NCBI GenBank assembly: GCA_016209535.1
Contig: JACQVW010000030.1
Span: 1-33,966 of the forward strand
Length of the DNA: 33,966 nucleotides
Direction: 5' to 3'
Source: Planctomycetota bacterium
GTDB taxonomy: Bacteria > Planctomycetota > UBA8108 > SXIK01
Shown: in pieces, positions 7,754 through 31,534 of the stretch
Numbering within the stretch: position 1 is the stretch's first letter
How the letters are laid out: each line of letters starts with the position of its first letter
Program-made: the position numbers and the translations under genes
Notes under the pieces: model-generated
Database searches by the model: none
Seen by the model: only the letters and a program-made list of their open reading frames with translations
What the model was told of the DNA's origin: nothing

Positions 7754-7798
7754 CTGGATTATGCCGTTGACACATAATGTCGGCGTTGCATAATCCAG
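7754..7798 (+). promoter_or_regulatory. AT-rich promoter TTGACA-N16-CATAAT (7767-7794) embedded in a perfect 10-bp inverted repeat CTGGATTATG…CATAATCCAG (7754-7763 and 7789-7798). This is a candidate operator.
   Basis: It has a near-consensus -35/-10 with 16-nt spacing. The -10 lies inside the right IR arm. A GAGGAG SD at 7803-7808 is followed by a TTG start at 7815. This is a striking AT island in GC-rich DNA. Confidence 0.5.
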
Positions 7799-7814: not shown

Positions 7815-9197
7815 TTGAGACTACCTTTCCTTGACCGCCGCCTCGAGCTGGAGGCTCTCCGGCGCGGGATCTCGGCACCGGGTGGAGGCCTTGTGGTCCT
7901 GTACGGCCGGAGGCGCTGCGGGAAGTCGAGGCTCTTGCTCGAGGCGCTCAAGGGGCACCCTACCGCCTACTATGTCGGGGATGAGCGAGAGGGCAGCACG
8001 CAGAGGCGAAGCCTCAGCCGCGCCATATCGAGCCTCATCCCGGGCTTCGACCGGGTGATGTACTCGGACTGGGAGGCGCTCCTCGACCGCTGGGCAAGGG
8101 AGGCCCCGGCGGACGCGATCCTGGCCTTGGACGAGTTCCAGTACATGGCTGCTTGCTCGCCCGAGCTCGCGAGCCTCCTCCAGAAACAGGTGGATGCGCC
8201 ACGGGAGAAGCCCTTCCGCGTGGTCCTCTGCGGCTCGTCGCAGCGCATGATGCACGGCCTTGTCCTCGACGCTTCGGCGCCTCTATACGGAAGGGCGCGG
8301 GAGATCATCAAAATCGGGCCCTTGGCCCCTGGCTGGATCCGTGATGCTTTCCCATCGTGGAGCACACAGCAGCTCCTCCATGCCTACGCCGCCTGGGGAG
8401 GTGTCCCCCGTTACTGGGAGCTCGCCGCGCAGTTCAAGTCCACCGGCGAGGCCCTTCACCGGATGCTTCTCGATCCTCTGGGCGTCCTCCGAGATGAGCC
8501 TTCGAGGCTGCTCCTGGACGACAAGAAAGAGATCGCCCAAGCGTCCTCGATCCTCAGCTTGATCGGTGAGGGCTGCCACAAGCTCTCCGAGATCGCAGGG
8601 AGGCTCGGGAGGCCGGCGACCTCGCTGTCGCGGCCCCTGGCCAGGCTCGCGGACCTAGGCCTCGTCAAGAGGGAAGTCCCCTTCGGGACCTCCGAGAAGG
8701 AGAGCAGGCGCTCCCTCTACAGGATCGCCGATCCCTTCCTCTCCTTCTGGTTCCGGTTCGTGGATCCCAAGCGTGCGTTGATCGAAGCGCGCCAGGAGGG
8801 AGCGCTCGATGAGGATCTCCGGCGCTTCTTCCCGTCGCATCTGGGCGAGGTCTGGGAAGAGCTTTCGCGGGCGAGCGTGTCCCGACTCACGATCGGAAGG
8901 ACGCGGTGGCGGCCGGCTGCACGCTGGTGGGGCCCCGGGCTCGACCGCCAGCCTCTCGAGTTGGACATCGTCGCGCTCTCCGAGGACGGGTCCCGCTACC
9001 TCGCCGGGGAAGCCAAGCTTCAGGTCAGGGCGAGGGAGTGGCCAACCGTTGTCTCGAAGCTCAAGTCGAGGATCGCGCGCTGTCCGGTCCTCGACGGAAA
9101 GCAGGTCGTATCCGCAATCTGGTGCGCGAGCGGGCGGGGCCGCCGGCGCGACGTCCCCACGGTGAGCGTGGCGGACGTGCTCGCGGCGCTGAAGTGA
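7815..9197 (+). CDS. AAA+ ATPase of the Arch_ATPase (PF01637) + DUF234 family
   Basis: TTG start. Walker A is LYGRRRCGKSRLL and Walker B-like is AILALDEFQ. The C-terminal region is DUF234-type (…YRIADPFLSFWFRFV…). It is a paralog of the gene at 22697-24145. Confidence 0.9.
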   Translation: MRLPFLDRRLELEALRRGISAPGGGLVVLYGRRRCGKSRLLLEALKGHPTAYYVGDEREGSTQRRSLSRAISSLIPGFDRVMYSDWEALLDRWAREAPADAILALDEFQYMAACSPELASLLQKQVDAPREKPFRVVLCGSSQRMMHGLVLDASAPLYGRAREIIKIGPLAPGWIRDAFPSWSTQQLLHAYAAWGGVPRYWELAAQFKSTGEALHRMLLDPLGVLRDEPSRLLLDDKKEIAQASSILSLIGEGCHKLSEIAGRLGRPATSLSRPLARLADLGLVKREVPFGTSEKESRRSLYRIADPFLSFWFRFVDPKRALIEARQEGALDEDLRRFFPSHLGEVWEELSRASVSRLTIGRTRWRPAARWWGPGLDRQPLELDIVALSEDGSRYLAGEAKLQVRAREWPTVVSKLKSRIARCPVLDGKQVVSAIWCASGRGRRRDVPTVSVADVLAALK

Positions 9198-22696: not shown

Positions 22697-24145
22697 TCAA
22701 GGCGCTGCCCGGAGCAACTCCCTCGCCGGGAGGATCCTCGAGAAGAACCCGGAACGGACGAGCTCCCGGGTCGGCTCGGACCTGGTGATGAGGACCTTCT
22801 GGACGGTCCGGCCCTCGAGCCAGGGGACCCTGCGGACCTTCTCCTGGACCTCTCGCGCCGTCTCGAGCCCGACGGGCGCATCCCGGTACTTCATCTCGCA
22901 AAGCGTCACGACCTTGTCGGCGCGGTCAAAGACCAGATCGACCTGCACGCCCGCCAGCTTGCCCCCGCGGCCATGGCGGAAGTAGGGCCCAGCCTGGTAC
23001 TGGACGCCGGAGAAGCCGAGGAGGGCCGCGATCTCCCTCGCGTGGCCAAGGCAAAGCAGCTCGAACGCTCGCCCGAGCCACGACCGAAAGCCCGGCGAAG
23101 GGGCGATGTGCTCCACGAAGCCTCGGTTGGTGAGCAGACGGCGAGCACGGTGGGGACGCAAGAACGCGAAGTAGAACCGCAGAAACGGGTCGGTGATGAC
23201 GTAGCGGAGGAGCCGGGAGTTGGCCGGCTTGTCGAAAGGGACGTACGAGGTGATGAATCCGGCGGACTCGAGGTTGTACAGGACGCGAGTGAGCTCGCCT
23301 CCTCCCGCGCTGCTCGTGCTGTCGATGATCTCCTGCCGGCTCTGTCCGAAGGGCTTCCCGGCCAGGGCGCTCAAGACCTCGTCGTACTTGCCGGCCGATC
23401 CGAAATGGCTCACGAAGATCCGGTGGTACTCCTCCGCGAAGTAGCCGGTCTCGGTGAACGCCAGCCGATCCATGCCGGCGAGGATCGAGTCCTGGTCCGC
23501 GAGGAGCTTCAGGTACTGTGGGATCCCGCCGACCAGGAGCTGCGCCAGGAGCACCTCTTCCCACCCACGGCCGGCGAGGAGCTTGGCCGCGTCGCTCAGA
23601 TGGAACGGCTTGAGGTGGATGCAGAGGCTCGTCCGCCCATAGAGCGCCCTCGAGCGGATCACCCGCTTCTCCATGAACGACGCTATCGATCCGCAGAGAA
23701 CGAGCGTGACCTCCCCGACTCGGCTCAGCTGCTGCTCCCAGACCATCTTGAGCGCCGCCACGAGCTCGGTACGGTAGTTGGCGGTCCACTGAAACTCGTC
23801 AAGGAGGACCACGATCTCCTTCCCCCTGACAGCCGGGACCAGCTCTCCCAAAGCCTCCGGCCACGTCCGGACGCCGGACTTCCTCCGGGGCTTCAGCCCC
23901 ACCTGGCGCTCGAGCTGCAGGAGGAAGTTGGCGATCTGCTTTCCCTTGGACTGGTTCTCGAGCCCCTCGAACGCGAGCAGGGGCTCCGTGGCGTAAGCCT
24001 CTCGGATGAGCGCCGTCTTCCCCACCCGCCTCCGGCCGTACACCACGGCCACATGCGAACCGGGCCGCTTGTGGAGGTCACGAAGACGGGCGAGCTCCTC
24101 GTCGCGGCCGATGAAACCGTCCCCCGGGCTCCCTGGGTTGCGCAA
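22697..24145 (-). CDS. AAA+ ATPase of the Arch_ATPase + DUF234 family, second paralog
   Basis: TTG start preceded by AGGAGA 7 nt upstream. Walker A is VVYGRRRVGKTALI and Walker B-like is VVLLDEFQW. The C-terminus is DUF234-like (…YVITDPFLRFYFAFL…). Confidence 0.9.
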   Translation of the reverse strand: MRNPGSPGDGFIGRDEELARLRDLHKRPGSHVAVVYGRRRVGKTALIREAYATEPLLAFEGLENQSKGKQIANFLLQLERQVGLKPRRKSGVRTWPEALGELVPAVRGKEIVVLLDEFQWTANYRTELVAALKMVWEQQLSRVGEVTLVLCGSIASFMEKRVIRSRALYGRTSLCIHLKPFHLSDAAKLLAGRGWEEVLLAQLLVGGIPQYLKLLADQDSILAGMDRLAFTETGYFAEEYHRIFVSHFGSAGKYDEVLSALAGKPFGQSRQEIIDSTSSAGGGELTRVLYNLESAGFITSYVPFDKPANSRLLRYVITDPFLRFYFAFLRPHRARRLLTNRGFVEHIAPSPGFRSWLGRAFELLCLGHAREIAALLGFSGVQYQAGPYFRHGRGGKLAGVQVDLVFDRADKVVTLCEMKYRDAPVGLETAREVQEKVRRVPWLEGRTVQKVLITRSEPTRELVRSGFFSRILPARELLRAAP

Positions 24146-24265
24146 GAAAAATCTCCTATGAGCTGGCTCGGCAAGAAGCTTAGGAGGTTTTTCTCGCAGG
24201 ATCCAGAGAAAAATCTCCTATGAACGATACACGGACCAATCTCAGGAGATTTTTCTTGGGGCTCC
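24142..24265. repeat. tandem pair of ~62-bp AT-rich imperfect palindromic hairpin elements (24142-24203 and 24204-24265), each built from inverted copies of the motif AGAAAAATCTCCT(AT)GAG
   Basis: Read directly from the sequence. The arms are GCAAGAAAAATCTCCTATGAGC/GCTTAGGAGGTTTTTCTCGC and CAGAGAAAAATCTCCTATGAAC/CTCAGGAGATTTTTCTTGG. On the opposite strands the motif reads AGGAGATTTTTCTTG, an SD followed by a TTG start. Confidence 0.7.
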
Positions 24266-24381
24266 TCAGGAAGCCGCCCCAGGCCTCGGTCGGCGGCGAT
24301 GGGGCCTCTGGAGCCTCCGGGCCGTCCGACAACATCGGCTGCCCGCAGATCGCGGCGGGGGTCTCGCCGACCTCGGCGTAG
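24256..24381 (+). CDS. candidate small ORF, 41 aa, started by the mirrored SD-TTG copy of the repeat. Low-complexity product; speculative.
   Basis: AGGAGA-N6-TTG. GC3 is about 93% over 41 codons. Product is MGLLRKPPQASVGGDGASGASGPSDNIGCPQIAAGVSPTSA. No gene lies on the opposite strand that could explain the frame bias. Confidence 0.25.
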   Translation: MGLLRKPPQASVGGDGASGASGPSDNIGCPQIAAGVSPTSA

Positions 24382-24551
24382 CTCACCACATTCCTTCCTC
24401 CGGGACCGCCCCCGCGCGGCCTCAGCCCCGCGTCTTCCCGGGCTTGAGCCAGGCGCCCAGCACCGCCCCGATCCCGGTGCCGATCAAGAGCAAGGCCCAC
24501 CAAGGGAGCGTCGGCAGCAGAGGGAACGTTGGTGAAGAGAGCATCTCCGTC

Positions 24552-25631
24552 ATGGTAGTTTCTCCGTCCATGAAACCTCCATCGAAGCCTCGATCGAAAC
24601 CTCCGCGGCGGCGCGTCGATACCCCGCTTGTCTCGAGGACGGCCGGCCGGTTTCACTTCCTCTGCTCCGTGATCCCTCCCTCCTTGGTCGGGATCACCCT
24701 CGCGGGCTGTGCCGGCGGGGCTCAGCCGGGGGAGCCCCTCGAGCGGTCCGGGGACGAGATCTGCGCCGCAGGCCGGCTCTTCCACACGGGCACTCGGGTC
24801 GTCCTCTGGCTCGACCCCGGGGGCTACGACGCCTACAGGCCGCACCGCTGGTTCCAGCCCGGCTTGGCGGGCCCCGCCGAGGCGCCGGACCGCATCGCGC
24901 GTTACGATTCCGTCCGCAAGCGGCTGCCCGAGGACCTCGCCGAGCGCGTGAGGCACCGCGGCTGGACCCTCGAGGATCTCCAGCGGGTCGTGCGCCAAGT
25001 CGTGGTCCACTTCGACGCCTGCGGGACCTCGCGCAGGTGCTTCGAGGTGCTCCACGACGTGCGGGGCCTCTCCTGCCACTTCCTCCTGGACCTCGACGGG
25101 ACGATCTATCAGACGCTGGACCTGAAGGAGCGCGCCTGGCACGCCGCACAGGCCAACGAGGGCTCGGTGGGGATCGAGATCGCCAACATAGGCGCCCACT
25201 CCGACCCCGCGCCGCTCGCGGCCTGGTACGGGGCCGACGAGGAGGGAGTGCGCGTCACGCTGCCCCGCGAGATGGGCGACGGCGGCCTGCCGCCGGGCTT
25301 CGTCGCGCGCCCGCGCCGGCCCGACCCGATCCGGGGGCGCGTCCAGGGGAAGGACCTCGTCCAGTACGACTTCACCGAGGAGCAATACCGGGCCCTCGAG
25401 AAGCTGCTCGTGGCGCTCTGCCGCGTGTTCCCGGAGATCAAGGCCCGAGTGCCGCGGGACCGTCACGGCGGCTTGCTGCGCCAGGCTTTCGGCTCCGAGG
25501 AGGATCTCCAGCGCTTCCAGGGGCTCGTCGCCCACTGGCACGTGACGCGCGAGAAGGTCGACCCGGGCCCCGCCTTCGACTGGGCGCGGGTCCTGGAGGC
25601 GCTGCAGCGGGCGGGCGTGCCGGAGGATTGA
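24552..25631 (+). CDS. N-acetylmuramoyl-L-alanine amidase (Amidase_2/PGRP/AmpD-like) lipoprotein. An alternative ATG at 24570 is in frame.
   Basis: It has a basic n-region then …FHFLCSVIPPSLVGITLAGCAG (lipobox). The amidase_2 core is VVHFDACGT…CHFLLDLDGTIYQTLDLKERAWHAAQANEGSVGIEIANIG. Confidence 0.8.
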   Translation: MVVSPSMKPPSKPRSKPPRRRVDTPLVSRTAGRFHFLCSVIPPSLVGITLAGCAGGAQPGEPLERSGDEICAAGRLFHTGTRVVLWLDPGGYDAYRPHRWFQPGLAGPAEAPDRIARYDSVRKRLPEDLAERVRHRGWTLEDLQRVVRQVVVHFDACGTSRRCFEVLHDVRGLSCHFLLDLDGTIYQTLDLKERAWHAAQANEGSVGIEIANIGAHSDPAPLAAWYGADEEGVRVTLPREMGDGGLPPGFVARPRRPDPIRGRVQGKDLVQYDFTEEQYRALEKLLVALCRVFPEIKARVPRDRHGGLLRQAFGSEEDLQRFQGLVAHWHVTREKVDPGPAFDWARVLEALQRAGVPED

Positions 25632-30340: not shown

Positions 30341-31534
30341 TCACGCGAGGAGGAGCACCTTCGCCCCGAGCCCTTTCGGCGTGCGCGCGGGCTTCAGGCA
30401 TGCCGGCCTGGGACGGAGCGGCCTGCGCGCCGCCGTGGCTCGGTGCCGTCTCCGGTCGAAGATCACGAGGTGGCCGCGGTCGAGGCCCATCCTCTCGAGG
30501 TACATCTCGAGCTGCGCCAGGCCGTCCTTCCGCGGGTCGGGCTTCCCCTGCCTCCAGACCTTGAGCTCCACCGCCTCCCGCTGCCACTTCCGCTCGCCCG
30601 AGGGGAGCTTGTAGGGCCAGCGCACAAGCAAGTCGATCCGCCCGCGGCCGACCCCGTACTCGCGGTCGACGTAGCCGGCGCCGTTCACGATGCCCTGAAT
30701 GTAGGCCTCCTCCACGTGCTCCGCGGTGATGGCCGCAGGCGCCTCGATGCGCATCTTCTCCAGGATCTCGCGCGCCAAGGCGTTCACGAGCCATGGCTGG
30801 CCCTGGGTCAGCTCGAACGCTCGTTCCACGGCCTCCTTGGTGAACGGCTGGCCCGCCTCCAGCTCGTGCCGGCGATACAGCTCGGCCAGGGTCTCAAGGC
30901 TGAAGTCCCCCAGGCGCAGGGAGTCGACTTTGATGTTGAACGGGCTCGAGGTCCCGAGCCGGCTCGGGTCGCCGCCGCTCGCTGCCTTGTAGTCGCGGAC
31001 ATCCCGGAGGCCGCAGAGGATCACGGAGTGGGGGAAGTCCTTCGGCCGGCGCGCGTATCCCGTGCGAAGCTGCCGCAGCACGGACCTGAAGCTCTCGCCC
31101 CTCAAGGCGTCGATCTCATCGAAGATGAGGACGAGAGGGCGAGGGCACTTCCTGGCCCACGCCACGAGAGCCGTCTGGAGCATGGCGAGCTTCGGCGCCT
31201 TCGGCCAGGCCCGCGGAGGCCTGAGAGGTCCGGGGAGCTGGCTCTCCGCCTCGATTCGAAGGGTGGCGAGGACGGCTTCTTGCGCCGCGGCGTAGTCGTC
31301 TCCGGCGGGCTCTCCCGACTCGCACGAGAAGTGCAGCGCCGCGTACTTTCCGCTCGCGGTGAGGGCCTCCGCGAGCGCCATGAGCGTCGTCGTCTTCCCG
31401 GTCTGCCGCGGCGCGTGGACGACGAAGTACATGCCCTGCTCGGCGAGCGTCCTTGCCTCCGGAAGCCGCTCCATGGCGGGGACCATGTAGTGCAGGTCGG
31501 GCCGGCACGGACCCGCCGTGTTGAAGTAGCGCAT
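30341..31534 (-). CDS. AAA_35-type ATPase fused to a C-terminal PD-(D/E)XK nuclease-like domain
   Basis: The N-terminus MRYFNTAGPCRPDLHYMVP is the hallmark of the AAA_35 family. Walker A is APRQTGKTT and Walker B is LVLIFDEID. The C-terminus …GRGRIDLLVRW…REAVELKV is a D…E-x-K nuclease motif. Confidence 0.85.
   Translation of the reverse strand: MRYFNTAGPCRPDLHYMVPAMERLPEARTLAEQGMYFVVHAPRQTGKTTTLMALAEALTASGKYAALHFSCESGEPAGDDYAAAQEAVLATLRIEAESQLPGPLRPPRAWPKAPKLAMLQTALVAWARKCPRPLVLIFDEIDALRGESFRSVLRQLRTGYARRPKDFPHSVILCGLRDVRDYKAASGGDPSRLGTSSPFNIKVDSLRLGDFSLETLAELYRRHELEAGQPFTKEAVERAFELTQGQPWLVNALAREILEKMRIEAPAAITAEHVEEAYIQGIVNGAGYVDREYGVGRGRIDLLVRWPYKLPSGERKWQREAVELKVWRQGKPDPRKDGLAQLEMYLERMGLDRGHLVIFDRRRHRATAARRPLRPRPACLKPARTPKGLGAKVLLLA

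Follow-up and report, generated by a model that had tools for sequence, protein, structure and literature searches.

The window analysed in our study is the whole 33,966-nucleotide stretch of the planctomycete contig JACQVW010000030.1. It was found to contain an AT-rich island of 116 bp (24143–24258), directly 5' of a minus-strand gene for an ATPase of the candidate phage-defence family PDC-S27. Four short half-sites in alternating orientation were present in the island, and the same four-site array was found directly 5' of the ATPase gene in all 11 orthologous loci. We favour, with modest confidence, the reading that the array is a compact promoter-operator-ribosome-binding-site (RBS) cassette co-inherited with a mobile PDC-S27 ATPase-nuclease, its half-sites being probably bound by the protein's own winged helix, which would repress transcription. 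The island would then be, somewhat more probably than otherwise, the self-contained expression and control cassette of one horizontally mobile gene. An earlier note on this DNA had described the array and had taken it for a regulatory element and not junk. That view was supported, and its observation stood, whereas most of its interpretation did not.

Half-site array upstream of the ATPase gene

The core AAAAAYCTCCT was found four times, at 24147 (+), 24182 (−), 24209 (+) and 24244 (−), with no copy outside 24143–24258 in the window. The number of copies expected from dinucleotide shuffles of the whole window was 0.00, and an 18-mer search agreed. The repeat search of the window showed a direct periodicity of 62 bp, a perfect 15-bp outer inverted repeat (CAAGAAAAATCTCCT / AGGAGATTTTTCTTG, 24143–24157 / 24244–24258) and an inner inverted repeat (24181–24195 / 24206–24220). 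The half-sites (n = 4) are about 14–20 bp long and consist of a defined 8-bp core, ATCTCCTA/TAGGAGAT, with A/T tracts. The GC content of 24142–24265 was 0.468, against a window mean of 0.706; the lowest-GC 124-nt stretch of the window begins at 24134 (0.452), and the runner-up anywhere was 0.548. The four-copy, AT-rich architecture reported earlier was thus borne out by repeat search, shuffles and GC scan.

The features are as follows, in the sense of the ATPase gene, with distances counted from its start codon:

24239..24258, minus strand: half-site A1 (sense CAAGAAAAATCTCCTGAGAT), core at about −104
24204..24224, minus strand: half-site S2 (sense TTCATAGGAGATTTTTCTCTG), core at −74
24200..24205, minus strand: predicted −35 hexamer (sense TGGATC), immediately 3' of S2, with 3/6 matches a weak member of the set
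24177..24196, minus strand: half-site A3 (sense CGAGAAAAACCTCCTAAGCT), core at −42, overlapping the promoter spacer and −10
24177..24182, minus strand: predicted −10 hexamer (sense TAAGCT), formed by the 3' tail of A3 and separated from the −35 by 17 nt
24168..24172, minus strand: predicted transcription start, about 7 nt past the −10, with a 5' untranslated region of about 25 nt that holds S4 only
24143..24162, minus strand: half-site S4 (sense CTCATAGGAGATTTTTCTTG), with the Shine-Dalgarno (SD) sequence AGGAGA at 24152–24157 and the TTG start codon at 24143–24145
22697..24145, minus strand: ATPase gene, 482 aa, with AAA+ (ATPase_2), winged-helix and PD-(D/E)XK (DUF234-like) domains; PADLOC PDC-S27

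The AGGAGA-N6-TTG of S4 (24157–24143, minus strand) was the only usable start of the 482-aa open reading frame (ORF), and the Pfam ATPase_2 match begins at residue 11 of the protein. The claim that this arm supplies the SD and TTG start of the ATPase gene was confirmed. S2 is an SD look-alike with no gene start after it. An identical 4-kb Logan contig carries the same locus.

Conservation of the array at orthologous loci

The orthologue set comprised 11 contigs (L023–L027, L029, L031, L032, L038, L040 and L041) with 55–77% protein identity and a GC range of 0.37–0.68. By taxonomy labels the window belongs to Planctomycetes and one orthologous protein to Pseudomonadales; the remaining loci were without classification. 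The consensus of A1 and A3 was an A-rich tract followed by ATCTCCTAA, with cores at −101 to −105 and −40 to −42, respectively, and that of S2 and S4 was TAGGAGAT followed by a T-rich tract, with cores at −72 to −75 and −11 to −12, respectively, S4 acting as the SD. The spacing from core to core was 29–30 bp between an A site and the S site that follows it and 31–33 bp between an S site and the following A site, roughly three helical turns. A counterpart of A1 was located at −101 to −105 in 10 orthologous loci. The GGAG of S2 and the CTC of A3 were invariant in the array alignment (alignment A2), and the sequences between the half-sites were unconserved.

The neighbours of the array differed at every locus and included NrdR-RibD, LysR/PD40/MerR, a PIN-Phd toxin-antitoxin pair, IstB, a sigma factor with FecR, AraC and AAA_14-DUF4143; the cassette therefore moves with the ATPase gene. 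In L027 and L029 the array occupied the entire gap of about 105 bp behind the upstream gene. Every other copy of the array that was found lay at the 5' end of an orthologous ATPase gene. Since the same array was present at all orthologous loci, it is a conserved cis element attached to its gene, and not a dispersed repeat or an accident of one locus. On the loci compared, the ATPase is the sole conserved product that is a candidate for a trans-factor. A second repeat set or a conserved boundary was searched for 3' of the ATPase gene and none was found.

Two orthologous loci deviated at the start codon. L026, whose protein is 76% identical, contained a GC-rich insertion of about 185 bp (1286–1470), whose ends are inverted repeats of about 30 bp (CCTGGCTGAGAGCCTGAGCAATAATCC...), exactly between A3 and S4, and its start position reads CTG; this copy may be an array disrupted by a miniature inverted-repeat transposable element (MITE). 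L025 contained TCG instead of TTG after S4 (1776), and an in-frame ATG was found 8 nt past its predicted −10 (TATGAG), so that the mRNA translated into its ATPase might have little or no leader.

Predicted promoter within the array

A sigma-70-like hexamer pair was found at one fixed position of the alignment, with the −35 directly after S2, a spacer of 17 nt and the −10 formed by the 3' tail of A3. The pairs were as follows:

L027: TTGAAA-17-TATACT
L038: TTGAAA-17-TAAACT
L041: TTGAAT-17-TATGAT
L040: TTGCCT-17-TAGACT
L025: TTGATA, TATGAG (read by eye; the −10 fails the final-T rule of the scan)
Window, minus strand: TGGATC (24205–24200)-17-TAAGCT (24182–24177)

In the −10 columns T1 and A2 were each present in 10/11 sequences and T6 in 9/11. 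An independent promoter scanner reported one site each in L027, L038 and L041, the same pair in every case and all at −59 to −31 from the start codon; a promoter scan and a terminator scan of the window locus both reported nothing. The predicted transcription start lies at about −24, near 24170 on the minus strand. As this predicted start is 3' of A3, the A3:S4 hairpin could not form in such a transcript, and the predicted 25-nt leader had less structure than its shuffles (z +1.85). With A3 across the predicted −10 and S4 across the early leader, the half-sites are placed as operator sites over a promoter and its start would be.

Domain architecture of the encoded ATPase

The ATPase (NCBI protein HY721_01410) matched the PADLOC model PDC-S27 with an E-value of 6.3e-98 over 427/474 model positions. 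An AlphaFold2 model built from 42 homologues had a mean predicted local distance difference test score (pLDDT) of 91.2 and contained three domains. The first (residues about 1–245) was AAA+, and the second (about 250–318; pLDDT about 90) was a canonical winged helix of three helices and a beta hairpin, which gives the encoded protein a predicted DNA-binding domain. The third (about 340–478) was an alpha/beta domain of PD-(D/E)XK fold, in which D403, E417 and K419 were invariant (protein alignment A3). The top Foldseek matches of the model were the archaeal ATPases 2qen and 2fna, followed by DNA-binding Orc1/Cdc6 and origin recognition complex (ORC) subunits, and a sequence search of the PDB with the ATPase returned nothing useful. 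The label of DUF234 ATPase given earlier needs a qualification, as the Pfam signal for DUF234 in this protein was weak (E 0.11). DUF234 is classed as PD-(D/E)XK (PMC3424549), the fold present in the model.

PDC-S27 is described as a candidate single-gene phage-defence family in which an ATPase is fused to a PD-(D/E)XK domain (PMC12988326), and the predicted architecture of our ATPase matches that description. Together with related ATPase_2/DUF234 proteins, its members rank with the commonest uncharacterised candidate defence genes of bacteria and archaea, thousands of copies being reported (PMC12988326). In the only phage-resistance test of PDC-S27 found in the literature search, four candidates gave E. 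coli B protection from T4, T5 or T7, and PDC-S27 was not one of them (bioRxiv 10.1101/2024.09.26.614923). PDC-S27 is defined on the protein alone, and no description of a cis regulatory element for this ATPase family was found in the literature searched.

Three ATPase genes of the ATPase_2/AAA_16 type, which resembles ORC proteins and signal transduction ATPases with numerous domains (STAND), were present in the window (7815–9197, 22697–24145 and 30341–31534). PDC-S27 was matched by 22697–24145 and, more weakly, by 7815–9197 (E 3.9e-28); 30341–31534 matched no PADLOC model.

Inverted repeats of the paralogue and of distant relatives

The other DUF234 ATPase gene of the window (7815–9197, plus strand) was preceded by a perfect 11-bp inverted repeat, CTGGATTATGC (7754–7764) / GCATAATCCAG (7788–7798). 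This repeat brackets the hexamer pair TTGACA-16-CATAAT, which matches at 11/12 positions where 0.0 were expected in shuffles, and any transcript from that pair would begin 3' of its left arm. The geometry is like that of the array, and the sequence is different.

The search of plasmids found only relatives with less than 30% identity, which were used as an outgroup, and these too contained wide-gap inverted repeats upstream of the gene. Orthologues with at least 55% identity share TAGGAGAT, whereas relatives at 23–32% identity contained other inverted repeats (TTGGCGGAAT, GAGTATAAT, ATGGAGAC and TGCCGAATTTTGACCT) with gaps of 12–30 nt. Those of the plasmid homologues were as follows:

Emticicia plasmid: TTGGCGGAAT-N18-ATTCCGCCAA
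Butyrivibrio plasmid: the Emticicia half-site TTGGCGGAAT, three times
Rhodothermus: ATTATACTC / GAGTATAAT, with GAGTATAAT twice
Desulfosarcina: TTTTGTGTC-N21-GACACAAAA

A set of 54 distinct loci of distant relatives was taken from viral contigs, and the best inverted repeat with a gap of 10–35 nt was sought in the 180 nt upstream of each gene. It averaged 10.4 matched bases, compared with 7.4 in dinucleotide shuffles; 28 of the 54 loci beat at least 95% of their shuffles, and the repeat sequences differed by clade. The geometry is kept and the repeats are clade-specific; thus the site sequence changes with the protein clade, the pattern that recognition of the sites by the encoded winged helix would be expected to produce.

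The Emticicia (L036, Bacteroidota) and Butyrivibrio (L037, Bacillota) plasmids have the half-site TTGGCGGAAT in common, in inverted pairs at −94 to −31 from the start codon, which suggests that gene and cis element may have been transferred together between phyla.

Pairing of the arms in RNA

An RNA-level switch would be an unlikely explanation of the array, though one with evidence of its own. In a long leader, A3 would pair with S4 and hide the SD and TTG, and the pairing A1:S2 with the alternative S2:A3 would form an attenuator-like switch of four segments, or would at least shield the gene from read-through translation. The four alternating arms do permit two mutually exclusive pairings, S4 is the SD in every orthologue, and the folds of the window array are strong: −76 kcal/mol for 171 nt (z −3.7), and −24.1 and −26.0 kcal/mol for the single hairpins folded alone (z about −4 to −5). 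A co-directional ORF is present upstream, with no terminator detected between it and the array, and the long inverted repeat of the L026 insertion would keep A3 and S4 adjacent in folded RNA. The two tandem hairpins proposed earlier each fold when taken alone, but in the minimum-energy fold of either strand the outer arms pair together and the inner arms pair together, giving a nested structure instead.

The two proposed hairpins were imposed on alignment A2 and compared with column-preserving shuffles. The paired cells amounted to 71.9%, against 72.8% in the shuffles; thus the pairing is fully explained by the match of each arm to its consensus. No covariation was found in alignment A2 (score 0.101 against 0.115 in shuffles, 376/500 shuffles being equal or higher), and the flanking A/T tracts, which are free to co-vary, showed none. 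Only the 6-bp core TCTCCT:AGGAGA paired consistently across the loci. The stems contained 13/13 and 12/13 pairs in the window, 7–11 in most orthologues and 4–8 of 13 in L024, L038 and L041, and the aberrant A arms of L024 (GCTCGC) and L031 (TTCTTG) had no compensating change in their S partners. The z score of the A3:S4 hairpin as RNA was −4.1 in the window, −4.35 in L027, −3.1 in L029, −2.15 in L038, −0.6 in L024 and −0.3 in L041.

The spacing of the arms, including the S2–A3 linker, was kept to 1–2 nt, which a hairpin model does not need. The predicted promoter lies inside the array, and the inverted repeats of the distant relatives and of the paralogue do not touch the SD. A leader peptide of the erm/cat type was also not found: no start codon was present at SD distance upstream of A1 in the window, and no short ORF was conserved across the loci. 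The earlier proposal of an RBS-sequestering hairpin is accordingly not supported, on three counts, namely the lack of covariation in 11 orthologues, stems that shrink to a 6-bp core in several of them and a predicted promoter −10 inside the anti-SD arm. As far as the promoter prediction goes, transcription would start 3' of that arm, the case in which the earlier note had said that no hairpin could form. The array illustrates how an inverted repeat can look like an RNA switch when it is built on the SD sequence. An RNA-level contribution would matter most in the window copy, with its unusually perfect arms, and in read-through transcripts.

Possible mini-ORFs of 8 codons with CTG or GTG starts were seen after S2 in the window, L023, L026 and L029; their stop is the TAA of A3, and the predicted transcription start lies 3' of them.

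Proposed mode of regulation

In the promoter-operator cassette that we favour, a sequence-specific protein would bind the four half-sites on double-stranded DNA. The most parsimonious binder would be the encoded ATPase itself, as an oligomer that contacts the sites with its winged helix. The bound protein would cover the −10, the transcription start and the early leader, and would in this way hold down the expression of a potentially toxic ATPase-nuclease, a case of negative autoregulation. S4 would double as the SD, 6 nt before the TTG start. The array, its conserved sequence and position, the lack of RNA covariation, the domain architecture and the clade-specific repeats of the family are results of the analysis, and from them we infer a binder, the sign of regulation and a promoter with its transcription start.

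Several points weigh against this model. The −35 of the window is poor (TGGATC, 3/6), no convincing promoter was found at the same position in L023, L031 and L032, and that of L024 was weak; to our knowledge, planctomycete promoters are poorly known. The identity of the binder is inferred from co-inheritance and the presence of a winged helix and from nothing else, and simple dimeric repressors do not usually have half-sites 30 bp apart. As RNA, the A3:S4 stem folds strongly in the window, L027 and L029 (−24, −16 and −18 kcal/mol, respectively), and read-through from the upstream 49-codon ORF would include it, so that an effect at the level of RNA is possible. Moreover, the core of the half-site is the SD/anti-SD itself, which would suppress covariation even in a real RBS hairpin, so the missing covariation of the core is by itself weak evidence.

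The gene-attached array with its 8-bp core is an immediate candidate ligand for the winged helix of the protein. A self-contained, autoregulated cassette would also be a plausible reason why heterologous tests may fail, because expression would be set by the cassette.

Other explanations of the array

A non-regulatory site for an Orc1/Cdc6-like protein is improbable in our judgement. The array would in that case serve as an origin-box-like assembly, as a place of nuclease nucleation or self-marking, or as the origin of a cryptic mobile unit. In archaeal origins, inverted repeats flank AT-rich DNA immediately 5' of the initiator gene, and the array, which also has inverted repeats flanking AT-rich DNA right upstream of its gene, resembles them in this respect. 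The Foldseek matches of the model point to an Orc1/Cdc6-like AAA+ and winged-helix fold, and the gene is clearly mobile. A putative initiator of the Arch_ATPase type adjoining predicted origins has been discussed (PMC4009838). Against this, no replication or mobility machinery was found nearby, there was neither a conserved 3' boundary nor a downstream repeat set, and regulation explains the embedded promoter and the SD more simply. In one form of the idea, which we hold to be similarly doubtful, PDC-S27 would be an Orc1/Cdc6-type loader whose ATP-bound protomers assemble on the four phased repeats 5' of their own gene. Going beyond a repressor site, the array would be a nucleation or "home" site, which would store the nuclease as an inactive oligomer, or mark self DNA, until a trigger such as phage infection sets it free. 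If this were true, cis-element and effector would be one inseparable mobile defence module.

The array was also suggested to be an insertion like a MITE or a repetitive extragenic palindromic (REP) element, in which a 116-bp element with 15-bp terminal inverted repeats brought in the RBS by chance. The perfect outer repeat and the conspicuous AT-rich island in 70% GC DNA speak for it, but this explanation is essentially refuted: the array occupies one locus in 34 kb, its distance from the start codon is unchanged in orthologues of unrelated genomes and contexts, and the ATPase has no alternative start, so that the arm is integral to the gene. The flanks, read as GCG|CAAG...CTTG|GGG, showed no target-site duplication beside the perfect terminal repeat. 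Pattern scans gave only unrelated or chance matches. The exact hairpin pattern was found 13 times in genome contigs and 8 times in metagenome contigs, all from unrelated, low-GC organisms, and these matches either resembled terminators, with A-tract, stem and T-tract, or were the mirrored SDs of two divergent genes. The three-arm pattern had 36 matches in viral contigs, about the number expected by chance in a hand estimate, of which 0 had the fourth arm and 0 were near an ATPase gene (tblastn).

Among the unrelated low-GC contigs, L013/L014 and L016/L022 contained AGAAAAACCTCCT...AGGAGGTTTTTCT at the mirrored SD and ATG of divergent genes (catGAGAAAAACCTCCT ... AGGAGGTTTTTCTcatg). By itself, the 13-mer is therefore a generic strong RBS whose spacer is U-rich.

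A bidirectional cassette, in which A1 would supply the SD and TTG of a real divergent small gene (24256–24381, plus strand), is likewise essentially refuted. AGGAGA-N6-TTG is indeed present on the plus strand, because A1 is an inverted copy of S4; the reported size and GC content at third codon positions (GC3) of the ORF, 41 codons and 0.93, were reproduced, and a gene caller predicted a 53-aa version on the identical Logan contig. However, neither the 53-codon nor the 41-codon version had a homologue among 5.8 billion proteins besides its own copy on that contig, the TTG after the mirror arm was absent in L025 and L026 (orthologues read), and the neighbours differ at each orthologous locus. 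The GC3 signal is common to a minus-strand frame of 69 codons (24389–24180), and in both frames GC1 is about equal to GC2, unlike the genuine genes here.

Several further readings were rejected. A bidirectional terminator was ruled out because of the loops of about 24 nt between the cores, the location at the 5' end of a gene and T-tracts that are unconserved in the orthologues. The hairpin-end and retron readings were dropped, since no HUH-transposase or reverse-transcriptase domain was found in the Pfam-scanned ORFs. No integron attC core sites (GTTRRRY/RYYYAAC) were seen on reading the sequence. The Rfam search of 23900–24700 with E-values up to 10 gave noise only, the best match being a 23S-methyl motif with 20.5 bits against a gathering score of 50.

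Open reading frames of the upstream spacer

In the GC-rich spacer 5' of the array the GC content is strongly periodic at third positions (0.93), in keeping with either the plus-strand ORF or the 69-codon frame. The minus-strand 69-codon ORF (24180–24389) has a GTG start with GGAGGA 6 nt upstream, and it runs through A1 and S2 to a stop formed by the TAA of A3. The 49-codon ORF (24422–24571, minus strand) lies upstream of the ATPase gene and is co-directional with it; it has a GGAGG RBS and encodes a hydrophobic, membrane-like peptide (MDGETTMTEMLSSPTFPLLPTLPWWALLLIGTGIGAVLGAWLKPGKTRG). A GC-rich imperfect palindrome is present behind this ORF (24401–24430). The amidase gene, from about 24669, runs in the direction opposite to the ATPase gene.

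Comparison with known systems

The array shares with MITEs, REP elements and bacterial interspersed mosaic elements (BIMEs) a short, AT-rich and palindromic form, with perfect terminal inverted repeats in the window copy. Unlike these, the array is not dispersed, it stands at a fixed distance from the start codon of one gene family across phyla, and no target duplication was seen. The translational attenuators of the ermC/cat type and other SD-sequestering leaders also have four mutually complementary segments with two alternative pairings, the fourth segment carrying the SD and start, whereas in our array there was no leader peptide and no covariation, the stems were unconserved and the promoter was predicted inside the array.

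The archaeal origin recognition boxes (ORB and mini-ORB) beside orc1/cdc6 share with the array an AAA+/winged-helix fold and inverted repeats flanking AT-rich DNA 5' of the gene of the putative binder. The likeness is one of fold and repeat geometry only: sequence similarity and replication context are absent, the host is bacterial and the protein has a C-terminal PD-(D/E)XK nuclease.

The C-boxes of restriction-modification controller (C) proteins and the inverted half-iterons at plasmid rep promoters are autorepression operators over the own promoter of a gene for a winged-helix or helix-turn-helix protein. As in the C-boxes, four alternating half-sites lie over the predicted promoter of a mobile gene, too much of whose product would be dangerous, and the cassette travels along with the gene. 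Unlike the C-boxes (about 35 bp), the sites are 30 bp apart and the array is about 115 bp long here; the presumed regulator is a 482-aa AAA+ ATPase-nuclease and not a small dedicated repressor, and the last site is also the SD. The array is an ordinary regulatory element in kind, and what is unusual in it is the 30-bp phasing and the use of the SD as a half-site.

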